DNA from: a phage
DNA length: 37,920 bases
Strand: one strand, 5' to 3'
Assembly (NCBI GenBank): GCA_033178465.1
Contig: GCA_033178465.1_4726.4
Shown here: positions 4,134-31,579 of the stretch, one piece after another
Layout: the number at the start of each line of letters is the position of its first letter
Numbering within the stretch: the first letter of the stretch is position 1
Made by a program: the position numbers and the translations under genes
The notes under the pieces: model-generated
Database searches by the model: none
What the model was told of the DNA's origin: nothing
What the model saw: only the letters and a program-made list of their open reading frames with translations

Positions 4134-4763
4134 TTATTCAACAAACCCTGCATTCAACAGATTGTCGTAAACACGATTAGCGACATCAACAGGAGAATGT
4201 GTGTTACTGGTATCTATACGCAGCGTTTTCGCGTCGCCGAGATAGTCCATAAAATCCATGTAACGATAACGTCGTTTATTGAATGTCGCTTCATCGATGT
4301 TATCAAACATCTGATGTTTAGCGTGACGAACACGGAACCGTCTTAAATACGTAGGATAGTCGATATCCAGATAAACATAGTAAGACGGCATGATAATCGA
4401 CGGTAGGTTCGGCAACAATGCGTCAAACAACTTAACGTTAGCATCATTAACCTGATAAACATACGTCGAAGCAATCGAACGATCGCTAAGCACAGTCTTC
4501 CCTTCGTTAAGGGCTGGATGAATCACCTTGTTGAAGAGATGATTACGTTGCGACATCATCGCCAACAGCTCGGTTTCCGGATCGAATCTGTTTGTTGGTG
4601 TTTGGTCTTCCAGGATAAGTTTACGAATTGCTTCTCCGTAGAGCGTACCACCGGGTTCGCGTACAACACAGACATTGTTTAAACGGCTGTGTAAAGACGA
4701 GATAACCGAACTCTTTCCTGAATAATCCAAACCTTCAATAACGATATACTTATTACGAGACAT
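4134..4763 (-). CDS. tmk: Thymidylate kinase-like nucleotide kinase
   Basis: P-loop IVIEGLDYSGKSS, REPGGT motif and DRSIASTYVYQ motif in the order typical of thymidylate kinases; ATG at 4763 with GGAG 6 nt upstream (track ORF begins at a TTG at 4775). Confidence 0.7.
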   Translation of the reverse strand: MSRNKYIVIEGLDYSGKSSVISSLHSRLNNVCVVREPGGTLYGEAIRKLILEDQTPTNRFDPETELLAMMSQRNHLFNKVIHPALNEGKTVLSDRSIASTYVYQVNDANVKLFDALLPNLPSIIMPSYYVYLDIDYPTYLRRFRVRHAKHQMFDNIDEATFNKRRYRYMDFMDYLGDAKTLRIDTSNTHSPVDVANRVYDNLLNAGFVE

Positions 4764-4779: not shown

Positions 4780-6009
4780 CTACTTCGTTTTTGCCGCCAA
4801 CGGCTGCGATACTGTAATCTCTACCCGATTCTCATCAGTACGTTTAACGGTGATAAGGCTGCGTTCATCACCGAATGGTTCTGCTACCTTGGAAGCCTCT
4901 TTAAGATTTTCAAGAATCTCGCCAGAGGGTTCAAACACCGCGAAACCGGAGCTGGTGTCGGTTCTTATTAAACCTACGCGCGTACCATTTACGGTAATGA
5001 TGTCATCCGTCTTGAACCCGCAGCAGGAGGGTAGACAGAACTGGCCGTTAACGCAGTTAGCTAGGTATGCCTCACCGCCGAACATTTCTATTAACGTTAC
5101 CGGTTTAAATGTTTTCTCTGGGAAAGCGCTATTAAGAGTATCGTTTCCATTTACGAACCAGATCATTACTTTATCTTCGGAATACGTTAGCCGGTACGGT
5201 TGGGTTGCGGACGCTTGCGCTTTATGCTGATTAAATAACTTTGATTTCGTCGCAAGCACAGCACGACCTTCAGCATCAAAGTACAGAACTTCATATCTAA
5301 CACATCCGATAAACACGCGACGGTTATTAAGTTCCGGAATTCTGACTAATAACGCATCACCGTTTTCAGTAGGAACGATACCCCGTAGGATGATCGATTC
5401 ATTGTTCAATACCGAGTTGTTCACGGCGATGCTTCGCATTACCGCTGGCGTCACTATTTTATCTACTGCAGGTTCAAGTTGCTCCGATGTTACAACCATG
5501 GAGCTTTCTTCGTTTTCAACCGACTGATTAAAGATTATTTTATTAAGACAAACAATCGGTAGAATCCGGTCTACCCGCACCATCTCATCGAAAATCGCAG
5601 GAAAGCGACAAATATACGGAACAAAAACATCAATATCGTCGGTTGCTTTTTCAAGCATATTAGCATATTCAATTGCTTTAGAACGACCGTTGAGAAGAAT
5701 AACCGCATAAATAACACTATCTTCCAACCATGCGTTAGTTGTACGTCCGATAATACGATGGGTGTCTATTTCCGCGCGCTGGGGCTCCGGCGACCACTTT
5801 ATTGAGTTAACGCCGTCTACAACCACGTCAGCGCCATCATCACACAAACTTCGTATGAACCGACTGACGGTTTCCACATCGATCTGAATCCCTGTCTCCT
5901 CAATTTTCATCAGTGGAATAATGAACTCATTGTTACCACACTTCTTTGCTCCGCGAATAACAGGAGTACTCTTCTTGTTTTTAAGAGATCCCCAGATAAC
6001 TTTAGTCAT
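4780..6009 (-). CDS. Hypothetical protein (409 aa)
   Basis: Long ORF; ATG at 6009 with AAGGA 7 nt upstream; no motif recognised. Confidence 0.6.
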   Translation of the reverse strand: MTKVIWGSLKNKKSTPVIRGAKKCGNNEFIIPLMKIEETGIQIDVETVSRFIRSLCDDGADVVVDGVNSIKWSPEPQRAEIDTHRIIGRTTNAWLEDSVIYAVILLNGRSKAIEYANMLEKATDDIDVFVPYICRFPAIFDEMVRVDRILPIVCLNKIIFNQSVENEESSMVVTSEQLEPAVDKIVTPAVMRSIAVNNSVLNNESIILRGIVPTENGDALLVRIPELNNRRVFIGCVRYEVLYFDAEGRAVLATKSKLFNQHKAQASATQPYRLTYSEDKVMIWFVNGNDTLNSAFPEKTFKPVTLIEMFGGEAYLANCVNGQFCLPSCCGFKTDDIITVNGTRVGLIRTDTSSGFAVFEPSGEILENLKEASKVAEPFGDERSLITVKRTDENRVEITVSQPLAAKTK

Positions 6010-6042
6010 TTTCTGTTTCCTTCTTGGGTTTTGTACGAGTTT

Positions 6043-6657
6043 CTAACGGCGTTTTGTACCGACCTTCCCATTTCGATGGTCATCAAGAATACGCCATTCT
6101 TCGAACAAGAGTTCAGCAGCGAAATAACCTACGGCAATGCTGTCTATCGCATGCTCATCGAGATTCGCTAACACAACACCATTCTTGGGTGTGATGTTCA
6201 TGAGGTTCAACACTTTCTGGCGGACATCGTCCTTACCAACACGGGATGTCATGATCCCAACGGCGCGTTTTGCGCTTCGGTTATCAACCCCTAAGAAAGA
6301 CACCGTAGGGTCAAAATCGATAACCGTTGTCTGAATCGCTGAAAACAGTTCGCTGAGCGCCATACCGCTTTGCTTGAAACGACCGATGAATGGTGTCTCA
6401 CAAGCAACCGCTTGCGGCTGGTACTCTTGCAATAACGTTGTCAGCGAACGACGGTGTTCTTGGATACGTGCGGCACGATTACCGTATCCAAGCGCAATAT
6501 CGCCATCGGGATCATATCGACGTGAAGCGTGCCATGTCCCTGCATACAGCAGTTCAATATCTTCGACACGCACGTCCAAACGTAGTAACGACGCACCGAG
6601 TGTATCGGTGCCAGGGTCGATTGCCAGAATATCGTAAGCGTATTCTGGTGGGATCAT
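6043..6657 (-). CDS. RuvC-like (RNase H fold) nuclease, putative Holliday junction resolvase
   Basis: N-terminal ILAIDPGTDTLGAS resembles the RuvC first acidic motif; later ACETPF and DEHAIDSIAVGYF acidic motifs; ATG at 6657 overlaps the upstream stop as ATGA (translational coupling). Confidence 0.5.
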   Translation of the reverse strand: MIPPEYAYDILAIDPGTDTLGASLLRLDVRVEDIELLYAGTWHASRRYDPDGDIALGYGNRAARIQEHRRSLTTLLQEYQPQAVACETPFIGRFKQSGMALSELFSAIQTTVIDFDPTVSFLGVDNRSAKRAVGIMTSRVGKDDVRQKVLNLMNITPKNGVVLANLDEHAIDSIAVGYFAAELLFEEWRILDDHRNGKVGTKRR

Positions 6658-7466
6658 GGTGTTACAACAGCCTCTACTGACCATGGGAAGGTTTTCGCAA
6701 CAACACCTTCCAGGAAGCGTTCAACTTCCGATTGCTCATACACCGAAAGCTTTTCGAACGGCGTTTGGTCTTCGGTTAAACCTACCGCATGAATAGGACC
6801 CAAATCTTTAACCAGGGTAACTTCGCCTTTAACGCCTTCACGTTTAACGATGACTGCATGGTCATTAACCTTGGGATCGTACAGCACGCGCATCATGGTT
6901 ACTGCATCATCCGGTTCATAACCGAAATCGATGGCAACACGAGCATTCGTCCCTTCATCGTCCAGAAGCTTGCTTAGCGCCTTACAACGGTCTTCAATCC
7001 AATCCAACGCAACCACGGTTTCTTGGCGTAGCTGAACCTCAACCTCTTTTCCTTGTTCATCGATACGTTTCACGGTAACAAAATCGTGTAATAAACGGTC
7101 AGGAAGGAGAGAAGCAATAAGTTCAACGTTGGGTTCAGGTTTATCGTTTTCCAGAATGATGGTCGCTTGTGCATCCAGATGTTCTTTAAAACGGATGTAG
7201 CGTGTTAATCGTAGAACTTCATCCTGGGATTTTGCATCTTCGGGAATAATCTCCGTCATGACGTTATAGATCTTTTCAGCGAACGTAGGAATTACGGTGA
7301 TGGTAATTCGTGCTGGTGTGCCACGCTCCTGGTACTCATCGGCTAACTTCTTTGCCATCCCGTTAAAGTAGGTTTGGAGAAACGGCTGCTGCGTTAAAAA
7401 CATTTTCTCCAGATCGGAATAGCGATGCTTGCGTGCATGGCCTAGCTTCTTCATGGGCTTTTTCAT
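6654..7466 (-). CDS. Hypothetical protein (about 270 aa), translationally coupled to the RuvC-like gene
   Basis: ORF 6654-7469 begins at TTG; ATG at 7466 has AAGGA 9 nt upstream; no Mre11/SbcD phosphoesterase motifs found. Confidence 0.55.
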   Translation of the reverse strand: MKKPMKKLGHARKHRYSDLEKMFLTQQPFLQTYFNGMAKKLADEYQERGTPARITITVIPTFAEKIYNVMTEIIPEDAKSQDEVLRLTRYIRFKEHLDAQATIILENDKPEPNVELIASLLPDRLLHDFVTVKRIDEQGKEVEVQLRQETVVALDWIEDRCKALSKLLDDEGTNARVAIDFGYEPDDAVTMMRVLYDPKVNDHAVIVKREGVKGEVTLVKDLGPIHAVGLTEDQTPFEKLSVYEQSEVERFLEGVVAKTFPWSVEAVVTP

Positions 7467-7487
7467 CAACAGAAATCCTTATTTGTC

Positions 7488-10007
7488 TTAAATAATCGTG
7501 ACGTGTTCGTTATATGTTTCAGGGAGAATGATGTTCGTTTTATCAAGAACCATACACTCGGCTTTACGGAATGATGCGTGGTTGATAACATAGTGGCTGA
7601 TGAACCACACTTGGCTTACACGGTGACCGTCAACCAAACGACGAACAAAATCCATGGCATTAGATTGGTGCTGCGGATCAAATGTTGATGCGAATTCATC
7701 TAACATCAACGGATAATCCGTGAACCCTTTGTAATGCATCATCGCGATGATGAACGCGATATTGATAATTTCCTTTTGTCCCTTACTCCCATAAACAATA
7801 TCTTTTCGCGGTGTCGGATACTTCTCAGTTAAAAGCGGAAAACGATAGTTCAATCCTTGCGCATCGATAGCACATGGGAGTATCTGAAGTTGGTATTCCC
7901 AAATACTCGCAATGATACCGTTCATGTACTCAACGAACGCGTTGATGGGACCCGCAATTGTTTCGGCAATCAGGCCGTTGGATGGACTTAACTCATCCAG
8001 AACAAGTTGTGCATAACCGAGTTGTTCTTCCACCTCTTTTTGTGTCGTTTCCAGCTGAGCCAGAAGCTGTTGGTCGGTTTTAGCTTCCTGTAACTGCTGT
8101 TCGACATGGCTTATTCGGCGAACCGTATCAGACATCGCAGCACGTAACGATTTCGTGTAGAGGTGTTGCAGATACTCTAGCCACAGTTGCGTTAACGCTT
8201 TATCGCTGTTATCAGAACGTACCCGATCTTCCATAATCGCCGTAATGGTTTCCAATCTACCTTCCGTAGCTGTGATGGCTTGTGTTAACCGCTCAACGGT
8301 TGTTAACAACTCTGTCCTGTTCTTATAAAGCAATTCTCGACGTTGCTGTAACGGTTCAACATCAACCGCTTGTACCCGTTCGAGCATACCTTGAAGATGC
8401 TTCCGTTCCTGTTCGGCTTGTGTGTAACGCGCAAGTTTCTCAAACGCAAGCAACCAATCATTAATGATTCCAATACTGCGAAACCCTAATCCGTTTTTAC
8501 GGCCTTCTTCCAGCAGATTATCCCACATGGGTTTAATGGCGTAATAATCCTTCGTCCAACGTGTTAACTGACGATGCTGTTCCATCCAGAGCGTATAGCG
8601 CTGCACCTTCTCGCTAAGCTCAGCTAACGATTTCTCTTGTTCTTCAACCCAAGCACGGCCCTTCTGAATACGTTGTTCAATACCCGCTTTGCTGGTCTTT
8701 TCTGTTTCACCAACGTGAAAGCGATAATTGCATTTTGGACAGCTGGTCTGGGGTTGATGATTCAGGTGGTCAAGATGCGCTTCCAAATCGGCTAACGCAT
8801 GTTTCGCGTTACGCAAACGCATTCTTGCTGCCTCTTCCTCCTTGATGTAAGCTTCAGCATCGTAAACATGATAGGTGTTGTCGGTATCAATCCATTCTTG
8901 CAATAGTTCTGTTAACGGAGCCTGAACTTGCGTGAGCTGTTGTAAACAAACCGCAGCGTCCAGATTCATTGTTAAAAGCTCACCTGGATGATCTTGCTGA
9001 AGTTGTTCGTCCAAACAGGCAAGGCGGGCTTTAATCTGATCGATATCACCTTCGCCAGACTGTTTCAACTGGTCAAGGATATTATCGATACCCAACAGCT
9101 CGTCAACCTGACTTTCGAGTTTCGCATTCGCATTCGCGAGTTGTTCTCTTAGTTCAGCCAGATTCTGCTGTTCTTGTTGCGATGTTCCTCCCTGGTAACG
9201 AACAACCGCACGAAGAAGTTCGCGATTAAAATGATGGGCACGTTGTGCGGATTCCAGAAGCTGTCGTTGATCAACATCGCTATCGAATAACGGCAATCCC
9301 ATCATCGCTTCGAGCGCTGAGCGTTGCTGCTTTAACTCTGCTTCCAATCCCTGGTGGTCGGTTCCGGTGTATTTCGCTTCAATGCGCTGTGATGTTTCAA
9401 CCAACTTATTCAGCGTGTGCTCATTCACCGCTTTCAGTGAACGTACTTGTTGCTTAACCACCTGAAACAACTCGAGTGCGTAATCGACGTTAACCGGACA
9501 TATCTGCGTTAATCGTTCGCGACGTTTCATCGGTCCCATTTCGGTGAACTGGTAAGCCGTTTCGTAACCTAACAACAAACGAATGGTGTCATCATTAAGT
9601 TCAAAATGTTCTTCGATCAGTTTCCACTGGGCCGGTTGTGTGCCACCACCATTCAGGTTCTCGCTGTCGTTAACGTAGAACTCATGCTTAAACCCTTTTT
9701 CTAAACGACTGATAAGACGGTATTGCTTATTACGGTGTTCGCAGCGGTACTCGTAATACCCGTCTTTATCAAAATCGGCACGCTCAGGAACGGTCGGATA
9801 CAGCAAAGGCAATAGACTACTCTTACCGGAACCATTACTACCTAAAATGAGTTGTACGGGATTATCTGGCCGGATGACCAGCTCCCGAATCATCCCGGTA
9901 TCAAAACGATTGAATCCACGTAAGTGGAGATAGGTGCATCGCATGCTATGATAATCCTTCTTCGATACCTTCTGAACCACGGGTTCAGAATGCGAAGCTG
10001 AAGCCAT
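7488..10007 (-). CDS. Rad50/SbcC-family recombination ATPase (T4 gp46-like architecture)
   Basis: Walker A GSNGSGKSS near N-terminus, long coiled-coil-like Q/E/L-rich middle with a CPKC zinc-hook-like motif, signature-like GSKGQKE, Walker B LMLDEFA and H-loop ISH near C-terminus; start uncertain (ATG 10007 lacks an SD; ATG 9944 has AAGGA upstream). Confidence 0.75.
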   Translation of the reverse strand: MASASHSEPVVQKVSKKDYHSMRCTYLHLRGFNRFDTGMIRELVIRPDNPVQLILGSNGSGKSSLLPLLYPTVPERADFDKDGYYEYRCEHRNKQYRLISRLEKGFKHEFYVNDSENLNGGGTQPAQWKLIEEHFELNDDTIRLLLGYETAYQFTEMGPMKRRERLTQICPVNVDYALELFQVVKQQVRSLKAVNEHTLNKLVETSQRIEAKYTGTDHQGLEAELKQQRSALEAMMGLPLFDSDVDQRQLLESAQRAHHFNRELLRAVVRYQGGTSQQEQQNLAELREQLANANAKLESQVDELLGIDNILDQLKQSGEGDIDQIKARLACLDEQLQQDHPGELLTMNLDAAVCLQQLTQVQAPLTELLQEWIDTDNTYHVYDAEAYIKEEEAARMRLRNAKHALADLEAHLDHLNHQPQTSCPKCNYRFHVGETEKTSKAGIEQRIQKGRAWVEEQEKSLAELSEKVQRYTLWMEQHRQLTRWTKDYYAIKPMWDNLLEEGRKNGLGFRSIGIINDWLLAFEKLARYTQAEQERKHLQGMLERVQAVDVEPLQQRRELLYKNRTELLTTVERLTQAITATEGRLETITAIMEDRVRSDNSDKALTQLWLEYLQHLYTKSLRAAMSDTVRRISHVEQQLQEAKTDQQLLAQLETTQKEVEEQLGYAQLVLDELSPSNGLIAETIAGPINAFVEYMNGIIASIWEYQLQILPCAIDAQGLNYRFPLLTEKYPTPRKDIVYGSKGQKEIINIAFIIAMMHYKGFTDYPLMLDEFASTFDPQHQSNAMDFVRRLVDGHRVSQVWFISHYVINHASFRKAECMVLDKTNIILPETYNEHVTII

Positions 10008-14189: not shown

Positions 14190-14939
14190 TTAGGGATGGC
14201 GCAACATAGTCACATCCCAGCATACCAGCTTGCTTTTCTCAAGCATCTTCTGCGCGATATCGACGCTAACTCTAGGATGCATGACAGGTAGCCAACGTTC
14301 GTTAAGTACCTTCGCTTCCAGGCGTTGCTTGCGCTTATTGTAACGTACCTCGCTAACCCATGCGTAACCAAAAGGATGGATAACCCGTGGGTAGTAACGT
14401 TTAAGCATCATCAGTCTTTGCTGATAAAGTTTATCGGAACCCTCGCTAACGAATAAGGCAACCCGTTCCAACCGCTTGGTGTAATACGTTCCGGTGGTAT
14501 GATTGATCCAACCAGGAAGTGCGCGTACGTCATTTTCGAGTGTTCCTGATACGTTGTGCACTTCACCGCTATACACCGTCCCAACAACCTGATTCGCTGC
14601 GCCCACCATCGACCGTGGCAAAGCATCCGCGGTAGGATACAACCATGCGTCCCCAAGCTGCTCTCCCGACGCAAGTACGCGTAGTCCGCTTGCGCTCATC
14701 CGTTGCGGATGCTGGCTCTTATGCGCACGCAACTGCACCACAGATAAGTCCGCTGGATAGGCGACGCAACAACCTCGCTGACGGAACAGTCCAACCTCAC
14801 CATCCATCCCTTCGATCATGCTTCCTTCCGAACCGTTCCACCAACGCTTAACCTTCACGCATTCCGCTTGCACAGCCTCAGGCAACGTTAGATAATCGTG
14901 CTCGATAAACACCACATCAAAAATTAATTCATTGTTCAT
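14190..14939 (-). CDS. Hypothetical protein (249 aa), first gene of the small-gene cassette
   Basis: ATG 14939 with AGAGGA upstream; immediately downstream of the AT-rich regulatory region. Confidence 0.55.
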   Translation of the reverse strand: MNNELIFDVVFIEHDYLTLPEAVQAECVKVKRWWNGSEGSMIEGMDGEVGLFRQRGCCVAYPADLSVVQLRAHKSQHPQRMSASGLRVLASGEQLGDAWLYPTADALPRSMVGAANQVVGTVYSGEVHNVSGTLENDVRALPGWINHTTGTYYTKRLERVALFVSEGSDKLYQQRLMMLKRYYPRVIHPFGYAWVSEVRYNKRKQRLEAKVLNERWLPVMHPRVSVDIAQKMLEKSKLVCWDVTMLRHP

Positions 14940-15782: not shown

Positions 15783-16676
15783 TTATTCGGAAACGTTGTA
15801 ACCGAATACGGCTTTACCGTAGGTGTGGGTACCGTCAGCTAACGACACCACTAGCACATGGTTGTATGTGGCGTTAACACCCTTGTCGGTAGACTCGGTG
15901 GTAGCACCGTTATAGACAAAGGTAGCTGTTTGCAGATTGGCTTTCAGCTCGGTGATGATCTCCTCACTTACACCCGTCTGCTCTTTGATCAGCGTAGTCA
16001 GGTTACCTGCCAGGGTATCATCGATCTTGGTTTCATTACTGGTAATCGCCTGTAAGCCTACAGTGTAGGTGCTGAAGTCTAACGGATAGGTTAACAGACG
16101 TGCTGACGTTTTGGTACCATCGCCTTCATCAACGTAGGTTAAGTTACCCAGGTTGGTAACCTTGATGATGTTAGCCAGATCCAGCGTGGTGTTATAAACT
16201 TTAACTTGAACAGAACCATACCACGCCAACGAATCTTCTTTGGCTTCCAGGGTGATCGTCTGGATACCATGATCGTCGAAGGTAACAGGATTAGCTAACG
16301 TATCGGCTTTGATGTCTTTCGCTTTATCCAGGAACTTCTCACCGGAAGGCGTGATCATACCGTAGCGTTGAGCTACAAGGTCAACCACATCACCGATGGT
16401 GGTGTTCGCTTCAACGTTAACACGTACAGCGATCTTCTGGAACCACTTAGCCAGATCCAGACGATGGTAGGTAACATCGCGTTCATTGAAGTAAGGGGTA
16501 CCTTCACCAGGGCTAAGCGTTAAAGTTGCTTCTGGAGCAGAAGCGCTTTTGGATTTAAGAACGTATTTAAGATCACTGTATTGGAAGCTGGCACCAGTGT
16601 CGGCGTTGAGCTGGTTGATCTCATCAACGATAAGTTGCCAAGGTGTTTTTAAAGTAAGTGAAACTTGAGTTGCCAT
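15783..16676 (-). CDS. Paralog-family protein (297 aa), probable virion structural protein
   Basis: ATG 16676 with GAGGT upstream; shares the motifs TYHRLDL, LVAQRYGM and SLAWYGSVQV with the tandem paralogs at 28896-32515 and with the 180-aa protein; moderately optimised codon usage. Confidence 0.65.
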   Translation of the reverse strand: MATQVSLTLKTPWQLIVDEINQLNADTGASFQYSDLKYVLKSKSASAPEATLTLSPGEGTPYFNERDVTYHRLDLAKWFQKIAVRVNVEANTTIGDVVDLVAQRYGMITPSGEKFLDKAKDIKADTLANPVTFDDHGIQTITLEAKEDSLAWYGSVQVKVYNTTLDLANIIKVTNLGNLTYVDEGDGTKTSARLLTYPLDFSTYTVGLQAITSNETKIDDTLAGNLTTLIKEQTGVSEEIITELKANLQTATFVYNGATTESTDKGVNATYNHVLVVSLADGTHTYGKAVFGYNVSE

Positions 16677-16721
16677 TTTCTACCTCTATGGTTGTTACAT
16701 CACTCTCAAAAGATGTAAGTG

Positions 16722-16750
16722 TTTACAGAAATTAATATATTTTATATTAA
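16722..16750 (+). promoter_or_regulatory. Sigma70-like promoter candidate for gene 16819-17361
   Basis: TTTACA (16722-16727), 17-nt spacer, TATTAA (16745-16750); about 60 nt upstream of the ATG. Confidence 0.35.
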
Positions 16751-16818
16751 TGTAAATAATATGGAGAACGACTCCGAATCTCCTTTTCGACCATCAAAAA
16801 ATCAGAGGACACACAATC

Positions 16819-17361
16819 ATGGCCTTAGACTTTAACAAAGCAGCGAAATCCCTTCTGCTTGATCTTATCAACACCAAAGCGACCCGCACGCTGACCGAAG
16901 AAGAACTGCAGTTCGGTACTCCGGCGGCATCTTCCGAACATTCTAAGAACACCGTTATTCAGCTGGATGCTGCAGTTGGTGCAGAAAACCTGCAGGGTAC
17001 TCAGCAGTTCTACTACGATCGTCTGGCTCTGTCCGACGTTTTCGCTGATGTAACTGGCGATGTTACTTTCGAACTGCCGCACGGTACCGACAGCATCCAG
17101 GCTTCTGAACTGGTAAGCAAGCTGGTCACCAAATTCGGCCTGGCTTCCCTGAACGGTGAAATCAAAGAAGAAACCTTCCAGCTGTCTGCAGGTACTGTTG
17201 CTCAGGTAACTCTGAACGCGATCGAGAATGGCATGGTATATACCGGCACTCTGCAGGTTGCTCTGACCTATGCAGCAGCACCGAAAGATGACCTGGCAAC
17301 CGTTCTGGCGGATAACGTAGCCGATGGCTTCGTGAAACCGACCGTTAGCGTTGTTGGCTAA
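16819..17361 (+). CDS. Highly expressed small paralog-family protein (180 aa), probable major virion component
   Basis: ATG 16819 with AGAGGA upstream; strong bias to CTG, CCG, GGT, AAC and TTC codons (the most host-optimised gene in the window); contains family motifs FYYDRLAL, LVTKFGL and MVYTGTLQV. Confidence 0.75.
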   Translation: MALDFNKAAKSLLLDLINTKATRTLTEEELQFGTPAASSEHSKNTVIQLDAAVGAENLQGTQQFYYDRLALSDVFADVTGDVTFELPHGTDSIQASELVSKLVTKFGLASLNGEIKEETFQLSAGTVAQVTLNAIENGMVYTGTLQVALTYAAAPKDDLATVLADNVADGFVKPTVSVVG

Positions 17362-18291: not shown

Positions 18292-18302
18292 AGGAACCTC
18301 TA

Positions 18303-19412
18303 ATGGAGTTACGTGTTTGTAAATGTTGCGGAGTGGAGAAATCTATTATTGAGTTCAAACCTACCACATCCGGGTATTACACAAGAACGTGTAAAAAGTG
18401 TTTGGTGGCATACAAGAAACAATGGAGGAAACTCAACCCAGATAAAGAACGTGCACAAATCAAACGTTATATGGAGAAATGTAAAAACAGAACAGGAGAT
18501 GTTAAGCTGGCTTACATCAGATCGTTGCAACCGGCGCTGCGTGTTAAGGCAAAAATAGACTACCCTGAAAATATTCTTCTCTTACATTGCTTTAAATGCG
18601 ATGGAGTTAAGCCGGTGGATAGTTTTGCTTTGGCTGCTGCTAGACCAACCGGTAGGTCGAATATTTGTCGAGCATGTTTGCAACAACACACCCACAACAG
18701 GAAATATCTCCCTACGGAACAGTTTTATCGGTGCCAACGTTGTGGTAAAACGAAACCAGCCGATCAATTTAGAGATCGATCCTCTGTGATTCGTGGAAAA
18801 CATTCTTACTGTTTAGATTGTGAAAAAGACGTTAAAGAAGAATTGTTGCGACGCAGAACTCCTGAATATCAGATTGAGAAACTAAAAGAGAAAAGTGTAT
18901 TGCTTGCGTGTAAACATGGACTGGATCCGGATAAGCTCTGGAAGAAATGCTCGAGTTGCGGCGAGATAAAACGACCATCCGATTTTTCTCGCAATTGCCG
19001 TGCAATAGATGGATACCAGTCTATTTGTAAACACTGTCGCTCGGCCAGTAGCGAAACATTCGCTGGATTCAGGAGACGTATCCATGCCGCCGTCGGTCAT
19101 GCGACGACCGTTGGTAAACTAACACGTCCTGATACATGCGAAGAGTGTGGCTGTAACGCATACACTGAGGCACACCATGACAACTATCTTAAACCTTTCG
19201 ATGTTCGCTGGTTATGCCGTAGCTGCCATCGTAAAGTCCATTTGAATTACGTATTTGTTGAAATACGTTATTTCAAGGAAAAAGGTTTAACGGTTGAAGA
19301 AGTTGTGCGTCGAGCTTACCCTGACGCTTTTGATTGGGTGGTGGTTAACCCGGAAGATAAGAATGCGCTAGTTATCGTCCGAGTACCACCACAGTTACGA
19401 GAGTTAGATTAA
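18303..19412 (+). CDS. HNH endonuclease with four N-terminal zinc-ribbon-like repeats (homing-endonuclease-like)
   Basis: C-terminal CEECG...HHDNY...WLCRSCHRKVH HNH motif; four repeats of C-x2-C-G-x2-K-x4-F...C-x2-C; visibly AT-richer than neighbours; opposite orientation to both flanking genes; start only 11 bp from the endolysin start. Confidence 0.7.
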   Translation: MELRVCKCCGVEKSIIEFKPTTSGYYTRTCKKCLVAYKKQWRKLNPDKERAQIKRYMEKCKNRTGDVKLAYIRSLQPALRVKAKIDYPENILLLHCFKCDGVKPVDSFALAAARPTGRSNICRACLQQHTHNRKYLPTEQFYRCQRCGKTKPADQFRDRSSVIRGKHSYCLDCEKDVKEELLRRRTPEYQIEKLKEKSVLLACKHGLDPDKLWKKCSSCGEIKRPSDFSRNCRAIDGYQSICKHCRSASSETFAGFRRRIHAAVGHATTVGKLTRPDTCEECGCNAYTEAHHDNYLKPFDVRWLCRSCHRKVHLNYVFVEIRYFKEKGLTVEEVVRRAYPDAFDWVVVNPEDKNALVIVRVPPQLRELD

Positions 19413-19420
19413 TGTCGAAT

Positions 19421-19444
19421 AAGAGGGAGTGGCAGCTCCCTCTT
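19421..19444 (+). terminator. Terminator candidate after the HNH gene
   Basis: Stem AAGAGGGAG / CTCCCTCTT (9 bp) with 6-nt loop, followed by a partly T-rich run. Confidence 0.4.
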
Positions 19445-19488
19445 TATGCCGTGTTGTTAAATACTGGATTTAGAGGAACAGGAAGGGT

Positions 19489-19570: not shown

Positions 19571-21619
19571 TCAAATACCTTTGGTTCCCTTCACGTGATG
19601 TGCGATTTCTTCAACCATTGCACGCAGGGCACGAAGCTGTTGGTCGTGTTCGTACCAACCGCCTAACAGAACCCCGCTATACACCATGGTGTCAAGACTT
19701 AACAGTCCTTTATCTGATACGTTGATCATTTCAGGGAACTGTTCTTGAACACGCTGTGCGATAACACCGATCTTCTCGACATCAGGATCGTAGTTGTGAC
19801 GGAAACGGGCAAGCCCGCTGCGCGCCATTTCGCGTAAACGTTCACTGAGAGATTCCGGATGATCTTTCAGATAACGAATGTCGTGTTTACTACGCTCATC
19901 TGAACGGATGTAAGCGTTAGGAACATCGATGTTGCTGTTGAAGTACAGCGCACTACCACCGCCTGCAGAGTTCCCCCAATAGAAGCGTGTGATCTCACCG
20001 CCGCCATTTTCCGTGATGATAACATGTTTACCTAAACGCGTACCACCGTTACCATCAACGAAGACCAGTTTGTTTCCGCTGTAAGAACCCCAGAACAAGC
20101 GTGTATCGATGATGTGTGTTGCAGCGAGACGGGCGTTACGTGGTGTAGAATACACGGTGTTAACATCTTGCTGCGCATGTGCATCGGAAGCGATACCATA
20201 GTTCTGTACGTTACCCAATCCCACCTGCGCTTTTGTAACAGCATGCGGGTTATCCCGACGGTTAGCGTGAGCGTTAACCAGATCACCCGCTAATTTCTGA
20301 ATTGCCCAGTTGGTAGACTGTGGTGTCATGTAACGGTTCGTTGCAGAACCACCTTGCGCTTCAGCTTGGTTAGCGGTTGGGTAGTTCTCAACACTTCCTA
20401 ACCCTACTTGTGCCTTAGACACTTGGTGTGGGTTATTCTTATCGGCGATGTGTGCATTAAGCGGAACTAACGCAAAGGTCTCAATGGACGCTTTGGTTGT
20501 GTTCGGTGCCATTAATCGGTTAGCTGCAACACCAGCACGCGCTTCTTCTTCAGAAGCCATTGGGTAGTCTTGCACATTCCCTAACCCAACCTGTGCTTTG
20601 GTCACCCTGTGTGGGTTGTTGTAATCGGCTTTATGCGCATTAAGCGGAATCAGTGCGAACTGTTCAATCGCTGCAACAGTACGTAGCGGCGTCATGAAAC
20701 GGTTGTTCGCTGTACCCGCTTTTGCTTCAGAGTCCGACGCTGTCGGGAAGTTATCAACGTTCCCAAGGTTAACCTGTGCTTTGGTGACGCTATGCGGGTT
20801 ATCCCGGCGGTTAGCATGCGCGTCGACCAGATCGCCTGCCAGTTTAGCAATCGCCCAGCCAACCGTCTGTGCTGTCATGTAACGGTCAGGTGCAGTACCG
20901 GCTTCTGCCTCCGCCTTGTTTGCGGTAGGGTAGTTCTGTACGTTACCTAGTCCGACTTGGGCTTTTGTTACTTCGTGCGGGTTATCGGTACGGTTAGCAT
21001 GTGCGTAATGCAGATCGGTCAGATCTTTATCCGCCGCTTGCATGTCTTTGCGTAGCTGATCGATTGCCGCCCAGAGACGGTTATCGGACGCAGCATCACC
21101 GATAAGTATTGCAGCTTTTAACGAATAGATCGCTAAGCAAAGATGCTCGGTACCGTAGATGGCGCTAACGTGGTGGATGTGTGGTTCAGGCGGATAGAGT
21201 TCTGGTTTGTTCTTGATGTCGTCCCAGTTGATCGGACGATCGTCAAGTTTGAGTTCTTCGATAGCCTGATATAACGCGTCAATAAGACTTACGTAAACAC
21301 CACCGATGATACGATAGTCGTTAACTAACGTACCCTCGATATCATCGTTGATGATGGCGATGGCTGCACAGATTTCTTTACCAGCGTAAAGCGTAGCGTC
21401 CTGATACAAGAAGATGGGCTTATAATCCACGCCTCGTACCAGTGTCTTACCGGTAAGCTTTTCAGTGATGACCAGACTTTCGGTGAAGAACGGTCCGCCA
21501 TCAAGGGCGTAACATTTATTCTCGGTTCGTGGAACGGTATGCTCTTCACCAACGATGTGGTTGCTGGCGAGTGTACCGGTCCAGTCCTCGGGGTACTTCA
21601 GGGTAATTGGTGTCGACAT
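19571..21619 (-). CDS. Tail fibre protein with about five tandem 61-aa repeats and C-terminal intramolecular-chaperone (peptidase S74-like) domain
   Basis: Five repeats with core NPHxVTKAQVGLGNVxNY...YMTP; C-terminal SDERSKHDIRYLKD...GLLSLDTMVY matches the self-cleaving chaperone domain known from endosialidases and L-shaped tail fibres; N-terminus similar to gene 25306-27459. Confidence 0.8.
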   Translation of the reverse strand: MSTPITLKYPEDWTGTLASNHIVGEEHTVPRTENKCYALDGGPFFTESLVITEKLTGKTLVRGVDYKPIFLYQDATLYAGKEICAAIAIINDDIEGTLVNDYRIIGGVYVSLIDALYQAIEELKLDDRPINWDDIKNKPELYPPEPHIHHVSAIYGTEHLCLAIYSLKAAILIGDAASDNRLWAAIDQLRKDMQAADKDLTDLHYAHANRTDNPHEVTKAQVGLGNVQNYPTANKAEAEAGTAPDRYMTAQTVGWAIAKLAGDLVDAHANRRDNPHSVTKAQVNLGNVDNFPTASDSEAKAGTANNRFMTPLRTVAAIEQFALIPLNAHKADYNNPHRVTKAQVGLGNVQDYPMASEEEARAGVAANRLMAPNTTKASIETFALVPLNAHIADKNNPHQVSKAQVGLGSVENYPTANQAEAQGGSATNRYMTPQSTNWAIQKLAGDLVNAHANRRDNPHAVTKAQVGLGNVQNYGIASDAHAQQDVNTVYSTPRNARLAATHIIDTRLFWGSYSGNKLVFVDGNGGTRLGKHVIITENGGGEITRFYWGNSAGGGSALYFNSNIDVPNAYIRSDERSKHDIRYLKDHPESLSERLREMARSGLARFRHNYDPDVEKIGVIAQRVQEQFPEMINVSDKGLLSLDTMVYSGVLLGGWYEHDQQLRALRAMVEEIAHHVKGTKGI
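20190..21010 (-). repeat. Tandem in-frame repeats, about 183 bp period, 5 copies (tail-fibre repeat)
   Basis: Recurrent plus-strand block resembling GTTCTG-ACGTT-CC-A-CC-AC-TG-GCTTTGGT-AC at about 20198, 20383, 20567, 20750 and 20933. Confidence 0.75.
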
Positions 21620-21632
21620 AACCTGGAGGTCC

Positions 21633-24236
21633 TTATAACGTGACTGTACCTAATTTGGTTGTCTTATTGAGATTAATGACAGAGATCTGGGTATCGCTGG
21701 TCGTGATGGTGCCAATATTAACACGTTGTCCTTTATCATCTTCTTGCTTGTAGATGGTTAACTCCAGTTCTAACTGGTCGCCATTAGGAACAACGGAAAC
21801 GTACCATGTTTTATTACCCGGGGAGCTATTATAGTCTTTTAGGTTATAATGGCCTTTAGGTAAGGTCATGACCTTACCGGCAAACAAGCAAGTGATGTCT
21901 TCGTTGATGTAGATATCGTAGCCGGAAGCAGCAACGACCGTAGAAACCATGTAACGGTTTTTAACGGCGAGAGCTTTATATTCCGCGACGGAATTGCCCA
22001 CGACATTAAAGACTTGACCGCCATTTCCCATCACCGTAGAGACTGCGGTATCAACATAACCGATTCCCCACACCGGATGCACGTTCCAACGATAGCCGTT
22101 TGTCTGTAGGTAAGCATACATCCCTTCAAATGCGATGGTTGTCCAGTTTCCATCGTTCTGCCGTCCAGCTCGGAACTGATAGGTGTTTTGATTTCCTGCA
22201 GACTGACGGGAACACGGAACGTGCCCAGCAACAAGCCATCCATCACTCACCTTCTTGTACGCGAGTACGCCCCACGCAACATCTTGAGTTCCGATATTTG
22301 ATGTATCGCCGTCTTCGACATAACCCAGCAGTTTGGTTACGCCTGTCACGGTGATAGCGCCTTTACGTGCGGATACGGTAACCTCCGCGGCGATTCGTCC
22401 ATGTACGCGTGTTTCGGTATTACAACCAACAACAAACAGAATACAGGGTGCGTTCGTACCGTCTGGAGGTACCGCTAACGCATGCCGCCACCGACTTACC
22501 CCTGATAACTTAGATCCTGTATATGCGTTCCACACAAGCTGACCACCTGCTTGCAGATTCGCTGCGGTTATGCTGATAGCTTCTCCGGAAGGCGTAAGTT
22601 TGGTTGCGTCGTAACCTATTTTGTTTGTTAGGATCACATCGGTTAAATAAGACCCGCTAACTACCGTATTATCGTCGCTTAAATGCACGGTTAGGAAAGG
22701 TAACGACATTTGACCTGTTCTAACCACCACGTTGTTGGAAGGCGGGAAACCGTAAACATCAATACCCTCGCCTTGATAATGGTAGTTGAGGTCCCAGTCA
22801 TAGGTCACTAGACGAGCCTCAAAATTACCCTGTCCGCCACCCGTACGTGAGTTAACGAAAACCTTGTTTTTAGAAAAGAAACCCAGGTAACCATGGGACG
22901 CCAGTGCGCCTACGACACGATCACCGACGTTTTTCCAGTATGAATCGTACTGTATTCCACCAGTAGGACCGAGTTTGGCGAGTTCGTCGAACACGTTTCC
23001 AGAGAAACCGTTGATAGTGTACGATCGCGCTTGGGGGGCGGATAAGTTGTCGTTTTGGATAATGGCTACCTGACCACGTTCGTTGATTTCGATATTCCCG
23101 GTACCGTTACCCGAACCCCATTGCCAGAAACCGTCGTTATATCCGCTTGTCCCTTCCGTTGTGTTGGAAGGTCCTATCCAATCAATACCACTGCTGGTCG
23201 ATGTGTAGGTCGATTGTCCAGCGCCAGGGTTCATGCTGTAACTGTTGTTGGTGGTTTCAAAATCCAAATAGAACTGATGCAGCCCGTTTTTAGATCGGTT
23301 GTTACGGTTGTTCGTCCACCACGCCGAAGCAATCAGAATACGTGCTTTAGTACCTTTGGTTGCTGCGAACATACGAATCTGAGCACGCCAGACGGTTTGA
23401 CCGATCCCGTCAGAAGGGAAATCGTTCGTAGTTATACGGTTGCAGACAATCATCTCGGCACTGTTGCTTATCGCCGTTCCTTCTATCGTTCTACCGCTAA
23501 TATTCGTAAGCTGTGTAGCTGCTACGCTGCCACCGCTGGGACCGATGGAAGATTTCGTTACGGTATAAACATTTAAGTAGAGTTTATAACTGTTAGTGCC
23601 AGCAATAGCGATGTAGATTTTACCGTTAATTTCCCAACAGCAGACATTCGGTGACGTATCAACAAAGTTGGCAAGACTACCATCAAGATACATGGCGACA
23701 TGTTTGGATGCGTCAAACGTTCCGTCTGTCAATGCGATAAACATTTTAGGGCTGCTACCGTCTTCAAAAGCAGCTTGACCTAACATGATACCGTTCTGGT
23801 GACAGTATATCACCGTAGGAATACGATCGAGCGTTGCGGGCTCATAGCGACGGCTGGTTGGAATAACTTCAGTGATCTGTCCGTTTTGATTTGTTTTACA
23901 GATAACGTAGTAAACCCCTTTCTTTACGCTGTTCGTTGCCGAACGCAGTAACACGATAGTGCCGTCGGATTCACGGCATACGCCGTAACGACGGTATTTG
24001 TCGTTTAGACAGATAGCACCATCAGCGGAGCCTTCAATTGCCAGAGGAAAATAACTTTGGTCCCCAACCTGTTCGATATCGGTTACGCCAATATCGATAT
24101 ATTTTTCCATCTCAGCGTTGAACTCAGCGGTACTGTAGGCCCCAAGATCGCTCGCTTTCAGTCCCGTTGGGTTGTCGCGACTGGCGATACGCGTATTAAC
24201 GCTACTCACCAGTTCGCTGAACTTTTTCATTGCCAT
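21633..24236 (-). CDS. Large tail fibre or tailspike-like protein (867 aa), putative receptor-binding protein
   Basis: Lies between the fibre genes; N-terminal KKFSELVSSVNTRIASRDNPTGLKASD resembles the N-termini of the two small downstream genes; Gly/Ser/Thr/Asn-rich beta-type composition; ATG 24236 with GAGGTG upstream. Confidence 0.55.
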   Translation of the reverse strand: MAMKKFSELVSSVNTRIASRDNPTGLKASDLGAYSTAEFNAEMEKYIDIGVTDIEQVGDQSYFPLAIEGSADGAICLNDKYRRYGVCRESDGTIVLLRSATNSVKKGVYYVICKTNQNGQITEVIPTSRRYEPATLDRIPTVIYCHQNGIMLGQAAFEDGSSPKMFIALTDGTFDASKHVAMYLDGSLANFVDTSPNVCCWEINGKIYIAIAGTNSYKLYLNVYTVTKSSIGPSGGSVAATQLTNISGRTIEGTAISNSAEMIVCNRITTNDFPSDGIGQTVWRAQIRMFAATKGTKARILIASAWWTNNRNNRSKNGLHQFYLDFETTNNSYSMNPGAGQSTYTSTSSGIDWIGPSNTTEGTSGYNDGFWQWGSGNGTGNIEINERGQVAIIQNDNLSAPQARSYTINGFSGNVFDELAKLGPTGGIQYDSYWKNVGDRVVGALASHGYLGFFSKNKVFVNSRTGGGQGNFEARLVTYDWDLNYHYQGEGIDVYGFPPSNNVVVRTGQMSLPFLTVHLSDDNTVVSGSYLTDVILTNKIGYDATKLTPSGEAISITAANLQAGGQLVWNAYTGSKLSGVSRWRHALAVPPDGTNAPCILFVVGCNTETRVHGRIAAEVTVSARKGAITVTGVTKLLGYVEDGDTSNIGTQDVAWGVLAYKKVSDGWLVAGHVPCSRQSAGNQNTYQFRAGRQNDGNWTTIAFEGMYAYLQTNGYRWNVHPVWGIGYVDTAVSTVMGNGGQVFNVVGNSVAEYKALAVKNRYMVSTVVAASGYDIYINEDITCLFAGKVMTLPKGHYNLKDYNSSPGNKTWYVSVVPNGDQLELELTIYKQEDDKGQRVNIGTITTSDTQISVINLNKTTKLGTVTL

Positions 24237-28895: not shown

Positions 28896-29801
28896 TTATG
28901 CTACATATAACGTTAGATAACCATCGATGAGCGTATTCATCACACTGAGTTGGAGTACGACAGCTTTACTAACATCCGTACGTACACCGAACGGTAGTGT
29001 TTTGAATTGCTCTGGATCGGCTATTACTTGCGCATTCTGCAAGTTGAGCGGTCCAGGCACTGCTGACAGTACCCAGCGATCGTTGACCATAAGGCCGTCG
29101 ATCTCTTCAGAGAGACCCAATTGCAGTGTGTTCATTTCTGCGATTAGTGCCTCCGATTGCGTATCGCCCGAGGTTAACGTATATCCATCGGTAAGTGATG
29201 CCAGAACACCAGCAGATACGAACCAGTTGTACGAAACAATAGCGCCTGGGAGTTTACTGCTATCTCGATCGATGATATAATTCAACCCAGCCAACATATT
29301 GTTGCGAACGAGGTTGTTGAGGTCGTTATGTCCTGAGGTTAACTCAACAAGTAACTGACCAACCCATACTTGGTTACCGGGTTTAGGTGTTATCACAACC
29401 TGTATCGGTGACTTGGACTTATCCAGATCCGCGTCGACAATCTCGGTTTTGTTGAGAAGGATACCGTACGTCGATGCTAAGACAGGTAATATCTCAGAGA
29501 CCTTGGTTAATGCATCTAAGGTTTCGATCTCGATGGGCCAGTGGTGCTGTCCGCCAGACCAAGTACCCAGTTTACCAAGATCGATGCGGTTATAATAGAT
29601 GTCGACAGAGTTCACCAGCCCTGAACCCGGTTGGGGATGCACGGTTAACTTGCTGTTACGCTTGTACCCTGTGCTTTCAGAAGCTTCACCGATAACCAGT
29701 TTATCCAGCGTTACGCCTCGAGCATCGAAATCGCTATGCTTTCGAATCAGCCGAAAGAGGATTTCTTTCGATTCTAACCCCAGGATTTCACTGTACTCCA
29801 T
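28896..29801 (-). CDS. Paralog-family protein (301 aa), probable structural
   Basis: ATG 29801 with AAGGGG upstream; family motifs YYNRIDLG, LASTYGILL and VWVGQLLV. Confidence 0.65.
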   Translation of the reverse strand: MEYSEILGLESKEILFRLIRKHSDFDARGVTLDKLVIGEASESTGYKRNSKLTVHPQPGSGLVNSVDIYYNRIDLGKLGTWSGGQHHWPIEIETLDALTKVSEILPVLASTYGILLNKTEIVDADLDKSKSPIQVVITPKPGNQVWVGQLLVELTSGHNDLNNLVRNNMLAGLNYIIDRDSSKLPGAIVSYNWFVSAGVLASLTDGYTLTSGDTQSEALIAEMNTLQLGLSEEIDGLMVNDRWVLSAVPGPLNLQNAQVIADPEQFKTLPFGVRTDVSKAVVLQLSVMNTLIDGYLTLYVA

Positions 29802-29816
29802 TTAACACCCCTTAGG

Positions 29817-30701: not shown

Positions 30702-30717
30702 GTCTTTTCCTATTTAA

Positions 30718-31569: not shown

Positions 31570-31579
31570 TGTTTATTCC

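Follow-up and report, generated by a model that had tools for sequence, protein, structure and literature searches.

A Rad50/SbcC-like ATPase gene without an adjacent SbcD in a Goslar-like jumbo phage: a distant SbcD/Mre11 candidate and a clade-restricted gene overlapping a RuvC-like gene

Genes at the locus

The analyzed stretch of phage DNA (37,920 nucleotides, here called the window) carries three consecutive minus-strand genes, and reading of the open reading frames (7488..10007, 839 amino acids [aa]; 6654..7469; and 6043..6684) confirmed the positions at which the initial annotation had placed them. The window shares 96.2% DNA identity with Escherichia phage Goslar across this region, and its three genes correspond to Goslar gp012, gp011, and gp010, respectively. 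Judged by its sequence, the source is a Goslar-like, nucleus-forming jumbo phage of the Chimalliviridae. The middle gene, whose product we call X, would begin with the ATG at 7466, and the RuvC-like gene with the ATG at 6657. For the ATPase, the ATG at 9944 is the more likely start than that at 10007, because an AAGGA lies 9 nt upstream and both the Goslar annotation and the N termini of homologues agree with it. The features are as follows.

7488..9944 (longest open reading frame to 10007), minus strand: SbcC/Rad50-like ABC ATPase, 818 aa; homologue of Goslar gp012, phiKZ orf165, and SPN3US gp186
9819..9842, minus strand: Walker A motif of the ATPase, GSNGSGKS, from the translation
8730..8741, minus strand: zinc hook of the ATPase, CPKC, at the coiled-coil apex, from the translation
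7695..7700, minus strand: Walker B D-E of the ATPase, from the translation
6654..7466, minus strand: X, 270 aa, clade-restricted; homologue of Goslar gp011
6654..6657, minus strand: ATGA stop/start overlap of the X and RuvC-like genes, read from the sequence as ...ACA CCA TGA / ATG ATC CCA
6043..6657, minus strand: predicted RuvC-like Holliday junction resolvase, 204 aa (Pfam, phrog_159); homologue of Goslar gp010
4780..6009, minus strand: variable 409-aa gene 3' of the RuvC-like gene, at the Goslar gp009 position
4134..4763, minus strand: thymidylate kinase (Pfam Thymidylate_kin, 1e-27), final gene of the same-strand cluster

The ATPase is 99.0% identical to Goslar gp012 and matches the PHROG profile phrog_77 (“SbcC-like”) at 4e-74, with a Pfam SMC_N score (38.5 bits) slightly under the cut-off of 40 and no match in the PDB by phmmer. 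Its ABC motifs (Walker A, Q-loop, signature, Walker B, and H-loop) are divided between the N- and C-terminal head halves, and the key residues N37, G38, G40, K41, Q106, S720, D749, E750, and H784 are invariant among eight homologues. The same eight proteins share C402, P403, and C405 of the CPKC at residues 402 to 405, which lies midway between the head halves in a stretch that matches NCBIfam model Rad50_Sulf over its hook region. These features bear out the Rad50/SbcC-like identity given in the initial annotation and characterize a putative Rad50/SbcC-type ATPase with a central CxxC hook and a predicted intervening coiled coil. Using tblastn, we found SbcC-like homologues in 289 phage records, all of phiKZ-type jumbo phages. 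The gene is essential in SPN3US; in phiKZ it is free of disruptive transposon insertions and has an antisense knock-down phenotype (PMC5105663, PMC12571901, PMC12676376).

The first gene in coordinate order, likewise called RuvC-like from the outset, encodes a protein that matches Pfam RuvC (PF02075) above the cut-off (6e-6; 26.7 bits versus 22.2) and phrog_159 at 2e-21. D14, E87, H169, and D172 are invariant in six family members from the Chimalliviridae, and E87 aligns to the catalytic Glu region of the solved RuvC structures 7w8d and 6lw3. Both the RNase H-like RuvC profile and this D/E/H/D catalytic set are shared with bacterial RuvC and with the PhiPA3 gp159 and phiKZ gp140 family. Because the NCBIfam equivalog scores fall under their cut-off, we describe the product as a predicted Holliday junction resolvase of RuvC-like type rather than as an orthologue of bacterial RuvC. 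The RuvAB partner is absent, as Iyer et al. (2021) noted for jumbo phages.

A distant SbcD/Mre11 gene

The initial annotation had noted that no Mre11/SbcD gene accompanies the ATPase and had offered two readings, either a partner nuclease encoded elsewhere or a noncanonical ATPase-plus-nuclease module. The observation holds for the whole window: a clade-specific SbcD HMM detected no phosphoesterase gene adjoining the ATPase or elsewhere in the 37.9 kb (best E-value, 5.4). In Goslar, the partner candidate is gp178, annotated as “hypothetical protein” and located at 162609..163751 of the record, ∼153 kb from SbcC. This protein matches SPN3US SbcD (BLASTP, 3e-24) and phrog_100 (“SbcD-like,” 1.8e-40), and it keeps all of phosphoesterase motifs I to V (DIH, GDVFD, GTxxHD, MHG, and GHIH), which are conserved across six family members. 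The family profile also matches Thermotoga maritima Mre11 (2q8u) at 1.2e-7, as well as Escherichia coli SbcD and Pyrococcus furiosus Mre11. Pfam Metallophos is matched by all six members, but Goslar gp178 itself scores 14.8 bits, under the cut-off of 21.5 (E = 0.04), so its assignment draws on phrog_100, the conserved motifs, and the matches of the family profile to Mre11 structures. By these sequence criteria, gp178 is a predicted divergent but motif-complete SbcD/Mre11.

The gene is easily missed. Neither a search with the regular expression D.H...GD..D...GNH[DE] nor phmmer with E. coli SbcD recovered it, and in a Pfam scan of 180 Goslar open reading frames, gp157 alone passed E ≤ 0.01; the published literature provided the lead once these searches had failed. 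We rejected gp157 (185 aa, Metallophos_2) as a surrogate partner, as it is sporadic, occurs mostly outside the Chimalliviridae, and has no PDB match. AgentSmith_171 (“putative phosphoesterase”) also returned nothing when used as a seed for the Goslar SbcD.

Homologues of gp178 occur in 315 phage records, and the counts by genus are equal for SbcD and the SbcC-like protein (Pseudomonas, 81; Erwinia, 62; Salmonella, 24; Serratia, 21; Aeromonas, 19; Klebsiella, 16; and Ralstonia, 13). A second Goslar-like genome or contig has a gp178 homologue at 99% identity. By extension from this contig and from Goslar (96% DNA identity to the window), the phage sampled here probably carries its cognate SbcD outside the window.

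The separation of the two genes is directly supported across the family. According to Thomas et al. (2016; PMC5105663), the SbcC and SbcD genes of phiKZ-related phages, including SPN3US, lie far apart, and we found the same layout in Churi (SbcC at 97.7 to 100.2 kb and SbcD at 213.0 to 214.1 kb), RP12, EL, and Agricanvirus. SPN3US (gp186 and gp27) and phiKZ (orf165) share with the Goslar clade both the ATPase family and the remote, divergent SbcD. As in T4 gp46/gp47 and E. coli SbcCD, the two proteins combine an ABC ATPase head, predicted coiled coil, and CxxC hook with a calcineurin-like phosphoesterase that has motifs I to V. Unlike in those systems, the genes are not neighbors (∼153 kb separate them on the Goslar map), the two subunits have diverged strongly, and nuclease motif III reads GTxxHD rather than GNHD/E. 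Of the two readings offered initially, that of a partner encoded elsewhere therefore stands. An SbcD elsewhere in the genome had been named as evidence against the noncanonical module; its presence in the 96%-identical Goslar essentially undoes that proposal, making the module unnecessary and leaving it without positive support.

Protein X and the Goslar-clade operon

The order SbcC-X-RuvC is kept in three lineages of the Goslar clade only, with gaps of 9 to 21 nt between SbcC and X and with thymidylate kinase downstream of RuvC in all three. The overlap of the X and RuvC-like genes is present in the window sequence as noted, bearing out the translational coupling proposed initially, and recurs in the other two lineages, L012 (4 nt) and L011 (50 nt). 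The slot 3' of RuvC is variable. In the window it is occupied by the 409-aa gene, which has no family match in Pfam or PHROG and whose 5' third (5485-6015) gives no DNA-level alignment with Goslar; an unrelated gene of 163 aa takes this place in L012, and L011 has no gene there. The 409-aa gene is an operon passenger outside the conserved module. We saw no convincing internal terminator in the operon, and a sigma-70 promoter scan was uninformative, as the phage uses its own RNA polymerases.

In most of the phiKZ-type family, SbcC stands alone beside a baseplate gene, and RuvC lies in a late structural/lysis cluster without X. The Goslar clade resembles RisingSun, Churi, Noxifer, and Totoro in that SbcC and a baseplate/structural gene are transcribed in divergent directions; downstream, however, X and RuvC follow SbcC in this clade, whereas other phiKZ-type phages have unrelated genes there. 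Similarly, RuvC follows an array of ∼290-aa structural paralogues in SPN3US, PhiPA3, and Ea35-70 but X and SbcC in the Goslar clade, and the PhiPA3 RuvC-like gene precedes a spanin, a location that differs from that in the window.

X is confined to this small clade, within which the three lineages share 43 to 45% identity; IMG/VR and metagenome contigs added only near-identical homologues. X is an acidic protein (pI 5.2) whose N-terminal tail is basic. In the predicted structure, its confidently modeled N-terminal domain forms a small alpha-beta3-alpha module, whereas the C-terminal half is modeled poorly; X seems to be built from two of these modules in tandem, a pairing also seen in CheC and FliM. 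Superposition of the N-terminal domain on the FliM middle domain gave 2.5 Å over 76 residues, a likeness of structure alone. Profile comparisons gave no relationship to the phiKZ gp139-like structural paralogues found ahead of RuvC in other genomes (hhalign probability, 0.56%) or to a ∼265-aa SbcD-coupled protein (phrog_3229; 0.1%). A Pfam Ad_Cy_reg match (7.6e-4) was treated as spurious because it is confined to near-identical Goslar-type members and is absent in the two divergent lineages.

Interpretation and alternatives

We consider it highly probable, taking the explanation as a whole, that the locus combines the SbcC of the family, served by a distant SbcD, with a RuvC-like resolvase and a clade-specific X, perhaps of RuvC-accessory type. 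The ATPase is the core SbcC/Rad50 subunit of the family, its SbcD being encoded at a remote locus (gp178 in Goslar), and the two presumably form an ordinary Mre11-Rad50-type complex that may act on DNA ends and on hairpins, serving recombination-dependent replication as well as repair. The RuvC-like resolvase would most likely clear branched DNA ahead of packaging. In the Goslar clade alone, the RuvC gene appears to have moved beside SbcC, along with the lineage-specific X. We infer a tie between X and RuvC from the gene overlap and the co-conservation in three lineages, and in view of this conserved coupling the likeliest role for X is that of a RuvC accessory or regulator, although our confidence in it is low. 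More specifically, X may be an adaptor of new fold, restricted to the clade, that binds RuvC and, inside the phage nucleus, ties it to SbcCD or sets its timing with respect to that complex, an idea that we regard as improbable.

The remaining readings differ mainly in what they make of X. Its position directly 3' of SbcC, along with a size in the small-nuclease range, is all that would suggest a highly divergent Mre11/SbcD and hence a canonical pair. Mre11 needs several invariant histidines, and none is invariant in X across the three lineages; nor does X contain a GNH[DE]- or GTxxHD-type motif. Profile searches gave no match in Pfam (including Metallophos), PHROG (including SbcD), or the PDB, and hhalign against the clade SbcD profile returned a probability of 0.27%; the fold of X likewise showed no similarity to calcineurin-like phosphoesterases. 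The initial remark that the ∼270-aa protein lacks recognizable phosphoesterase motifs thus proved sound, and the check proposed with it for a divergent Mre11 gave no match. With the true SbcD located at gp178, this reading is effectively refuted and its chance is close to nil; as far as sequence comparison can tell, X is neither an Mre11 nor a nuclease of recognizable kind. A three-protein machine, in which RuvC is recruited through X and replaces or supplements Mre11, draws on the tight operon, with its short SbcC-X gaps and X/RuvC overlap in three lineages. The ATPase-adaptor-nuclease order is also superficially like that of SMC-type defense systems, and the ATPase matches PADLOC LmuB at 1.5e-12. 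That match is far weaker than the one to SbcC (4e-74), however, and a genuine SbcD accompanies SbcC throughout the family. Moreover, SbcC and RuvC lie apart and without X in most of the family, so their core functions are independent of X or of proximity, and we judge such a machine very improbable.

Alternatively, X may be a passenger unrelated to DNA repair, such as a host-interaction, antidefense, or phage-nucleus-associated factor that shares the SbcC/RuvC/thymidylate kinase transcript. Consistent with this, X occurs in one small clade, its acidity is atypical of DNA-binding proteins, and the slot after RuvC is a demonstrable hotspot of variable genes; phiKZ-type genomes are also known to scatter related genes and mix unrelated ones (PMC5105663). 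Unlike the content of the variable slot, however, the position of X and its RuvC-overlapping start are kept in all three lineages despite ∼55% divergence, suggesting stoichiometric co-expression with RuvC. We therefore view a passenger role as a serious but doubtful alternative to the preferred one of a RuvC accessory.

The main value of these findings lies in a caution and an annotation fix, as gp178 is still labeled “hypothetical protein” in Goslar. When the Rad50-like ATPase of a phiKZ-type phage seems to be an orphan, this should not be taken to indicate a new system, because the Mre11/SbcD gene of the family sits at a distant locus, and SbcD has diverged so far that it escapes both Pfam thresholds and simple motif searches. 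Given that the split of SbcC and SbcD was already published for phiKZ relatives, what remains, namely the Goslar-clade operon and the orphan X, is modest. The residual interest is that one small clade brought RuvC beside SbcC with a conserved orphan protein, which makes X a cheap candidate for functional tests, E. coli/Goslar being a tractable system. If the adaptor reading of X were true, break processing and junction resolution would be coupled in one machine.

Gene layout in the window and its relation to Goslar

ORF calling in the window recovered three successive ORFs at 6043-10007, all on the minus strand, followed by a gene that varies between relatives.

Genes of the region (coordinates, strand, identity)
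7488-10007, minus: SbcC-like ATPase, longest ORF 839 aa; from ORF and start evidence, likely 7488-9944, 818 aa
6654-7466, minus: protein X, ORF from ATG at 7466 to stop at 6654, 270 aa
6043-6657, minus: RuvC-like resolvase, ORF from ATG at 6657 to 6043, 204 aa
4780-6009, minus: variable gene downstream of the RuvC-like gene, 409 aa

The initial annotation had described an ATPase, a 270-aa protein, and a RuvC-like gene coupled by ATGA, and this was accurate: the ORFs and the overlap were read from the sequence, with the ATGA at 6654-6657 common to X and the RuvC-like ORF. The SbcC-like ORF and X are separated by 21 nt, including AAGGA. For the ATPase, the ATG at 9944 is the most likely start (818 aa), based on an AAGGA 9 nt upstream, the annotated start in Goslar, and the alignment of homologue N termini. 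A thymidylate kinase gene lies 3′ of the 409-aa gene on the same strand (window ORFs and Pfam).

The region shares 96.2% DNA identity with Escherichia phage vB_EcoM_Goslar, whose 237-kb jumbo genome carries genes for the nuclear-shell protein and PhuZ tubulin. The ATPase, X, and the resolvase correspond to Goslar gp012 (“putative SbcC-like”; 99.0% protein identity), gp011 (“hypothetical”; 98.5%), and gp010 (RuvC; 99.5%). Elsewhere in the window, positions 14388-14850 have no DNA alignment to Goslar within collinear surroundings (93-97% identical), and an insertion of ∼1.17 kb relative to Goslar (18292-19466) separates the endolysin gene from a large structural gene. This insertion carries a 369-aa ORF (18303-19412, plus strand) with an Stc1 zinc-finger domain (PF12898, 1.3e-7), possibly a mobile or homing-type gene.

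The SbcC-like ATPase and a distant SbcD

The ATPase matched the phage SbcC family phrog_77 (4e-74) and scored 38.5 bits against Pfam SMC_N, slightly below the cutoff of 40. In an alignment of eight homologues spanning varied phiKZ-type phages, the invariant residues include those of Walker A (GxNGSGKS), the glutamine of the Q-loop, the serine of the signature, Walker B (D-E), the histidine of the H-loop, and a central CPxC zinc hook; the window translations bear out these motifs. A match to an archaeal Rad50 model covers the hook region as well. By all sequence criteria tested, this is a genuine Rad50/SbcC-type protein. The SbcC-like gene, found by tblastn in 289 phage records, is a core gene of the family; amber mutants showed it to be essential in SPN3US (PMC5105663), and in phiKZ it is free of disruptive transposon insertions (PMC12571901) and gives a phenotype upon antisense knockdown (PMC12676376).

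Neither a motif regex nor phmmer with Escherichia coli SbcD as the query detected an SbcD in the complete Goslar genome, and a Pfam scan for phosphoesterases (180 ORFs, E ≤ 0.01) flagged solely gp157, a 185-aa Metallophos_2 protein. We rejected gp157 as the SbcC partner; its family is sporadic and occurs mostly outside Goslar's phage family. Located outside the window (Goslar stretch L008:43002-43556, minus strand), gp157 has GNWD where GNHD is expected and a weak, partial match to the ligase-associated PdeM model. Its relatives are scattered across Enterococcus, Streptomyces, Bacillus, and Yoloswag-like phages, which suggests a horizontally mobile accessory gene rather than a component of SbcCD.

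The lead to the phage SbcD locus came from Thomas et al. (2016; PMC5105663), who described SbcC and SbcD genes as lying far apart in phiKZ-related phages. SPN3US gp27 (21,020-22,168) belongs to a conserved block flanked by nuclear-shell/RNAP genes on one side and a helicase gene on the other, and the syntenic Goslar gene is gp178 (162,609-163,751 in the record; L009:15609-16751, minus strand). The gp178 protein aligned with gp27 (3e-24) and with phrog_100, “SbcD-like subunit” (1.8e-40). Six SbcD-like family members have DIH, GDVFD, GTxxHD, MHG, and GHIH in common, and gp178 keeps motifs I to V, with motif III as GTxxHD, not GNHD. A profile of the six matched Thermotoga maritima Mre11 (2q8u; 1.2e-7), as well as Mre11 of the T. 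maritima Mre11-Rad50 complex, E. coli SbcD, and Pyrococcus furiosus Mre11. Pfam Metallophos touched all six, gp178 at just 14.8 bits (E = 0.04, below cutoff); this low score and the variant motif III explain why the regex and Pfam scans overlooked it. On these motif and profile matches, gp178 is the Goslar SbcD/Mre11 homologue. It is labeled “hypothetical protein” in the GenBank and RefSeq records, as are its equivalents in Churi (phiKZ-like) and EL.

Another Goslar-like genome encodes SbcD with 99% protein identity. The window itself yielded no SbcD to the clade HMM (best E value, 5.4), so we strongly infer, rather than observe, the gene in the window's own genome. The SbcD-like gene was found by tblastn in 315 phage records, and of the eight leading genera, seven have it in the same number as the SbcC-like gene (Pseudomonas, 81; Erwinia, 62; Salmonella, 24; Serratia, 21; Aeromonas, 19; Klebsiella, 16; Ralstonia, 13; for Vibrio, 23 SbcD-like versus 22 SbcC-like), indicating that the two genes co-occur. 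They are distant in every genome examined, ∼153 kb apart on the linear map in Goslar.

Positions of SbcC and SbcD genes in four further genomes
Churi (Phikzvirus): SbcC 97.7-100.2 kb; SbcD 213.0-214.1 kb
RP12: SbcC ∼75-77 kb; SbcD 271-272 kb
EL: SbcC ∼132 kb; SbcD 33 kb
Desertfox: SbcC ∼29-31 kb; SbcD 195 kb

An ATPase without an adjacent Mre11, initially regarded as striking, is thus explained by a documented family trait, the split of SbcC and SbcD. An SbcD elsewhere in the genome, which the initial annotation had listed as refuting evidence, was essentially found (gp178 in Goslar, divergent but motif-complete), whereas the 270-aa protein did not score as a divergent Mre11.

Directly downstream of gp178, gp177 (L009:14792-15589, minus strand) belongs to the ∼265- to 278-aa family phrog_3229 (7.6e-65). 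A member also follows the SbcD-like gene in SPN3US (L031:14166-15002), with counterparts in EL (ORF031, L036 from 1413) and RP12 (ORF281, L034 from 1444); the two ORFs share 4 nt in SPN3US and EL, and just 3 nt separate them in RP12. This protein could be an unrecognized SbcD-associated factor.

Protein X

X had no match in Pfam, PHROGs, NCBIfam, PADLOC, or PDB sequences. Across libraries of 5.8 and 1.8 billion proteins, IMG/VR, and metagenome contigs, homologues were limited to three lineages (Goslar-type, P0003, and P0004), which share 43 to 45% identity. No histidine occurs among the invariant columns of the three-lineage alignment, and X is therefore incompatible with an active calcineurin-like phosphoesterase. 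Together with the lack of a profile match and an hhalign probability of 0.27% against the Goslar-clade SbcD profile, this rules out X as Mre11 and bears out the initial reading that it lacks phosphoesterase motifs. X was also unrelated to the ∼265-aa SbcD-coupled protein phrog_3229 (hhalign probability, 0.1%) and to the ∼290-aa structural paralogues that precede RuvC elsewhere.

The full-length AlphaFold model was poor (pLDDT, 52.9); the conserved N-terminal 112 residues were modeled confidently (pLDDT, 84.3; pTM, 0.68) as a helix, a three-stranded meander, and a helix. Two observations point to tandem duplication of this module: the N- and C-terminal halves are weakly similar (hhalign E = 0.0098), and the secondary-structure pattern repeats. 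The protein as a whole is acidic (pI 5.2), and its N-terminal tail is basic.

The RuvC-like resolvase and the Goslar-clade operon

The resolvase exceeded the Pfam RuvC threshold (26.7 versus 22.2 bits) and matched phrog_159 (2e-21). Six Chimalliviridae homologues all carry D14, E87, H169, and D172, and the segment surrounding E87 can be aligned to solved RuvC structures. The resolvase has homologues in 213 phage records. In SPN3US (L020), PhiPA3 (L021), and Ea35-70 (L022), the gene comes at the end of an array of ∼290-aa structural paralogues; in PhiPA3, an Rz-like spanin gene lies directly 3′ of it. This position at the end of a virion-protein array or before a spanin makes it part of a late structural/lysis cluster, consistent with a resolvase that clears branched DNA for packaging. 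The ∼290-aa proteins are paralogous virion proteins. Several adjacent paralogous genes in the window (28896-32515, minus strand; 15783-17361, plus strand; ∼280 to 310 aa, Pfam DUF7941) correspond to this array; the first 79 kb of Goslar contain five DUF7941 members. According to Iyer et al. (2021), RusA displaces RuvC in phiKZ-like phages; because a similarity between PhiPA3 gp159 and phiKZ gp140 has been noted, these phages may have a RuvC-like gene despite that statement.

The order SbcC-X-RuvC was found in the Goslar clade only. In Noxifer, RisingSun, Churi, and Totoro, the SbcC-like gene diverges from a baseplate/structural gene, as in the window, but is followed by unrelated genes instead of X and RuvC; in SPN3US, PhiPA3, and Ea35-70, RuvC follows structural paralogues rather than X. 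All three Goslar-clade lineages keep the order, with 9 to 21 nt between SbcC and X and X/RuvC overlaps of 4 nt (window and L012) or 50 nt (L011; L011 and L012 are loci of the two divergent lineages). The slot after RuvC is occupied by the 409-aa gene in the window and by an unrelated gene of 163 aa in L012, and it is empty in L011. Within the window, 5485-6015, the 5′ third of the 409-aa gene, has no DNA alignment to Goslar between flanks that are 94 to 95% identical. Gene content at this slot appears hypervariable or mosaic. That the X-RuvC pair is fixed while the next slot varies is the sole argument that X works with RuvC, suggestive but not conclusive; that X modulates or localizes RuvC is speculative.

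The sequence evidence shows an SbcC/Rad50 ATPase whose motifs are intact, a distant SbcD/Mre11 with all its motifs, and a RuvC-like nuclease that keeps its catalytic residues. Judging from what is established for Mre11-Rad50/SbcCD, T4 gp46/47, and phage resolvases, the SbcC and SbcD proteins would form an ATP-dependent nuclease that processes ends and hairpins and would feed recombination-dependent replication and repair, and RuvC would remove junctions from concatemeric DNA before or during packaging. What is left as novel is X, an orphan restricted to one clade, within an operon that has been rearranged; this is ordinary for a jumbo phage.
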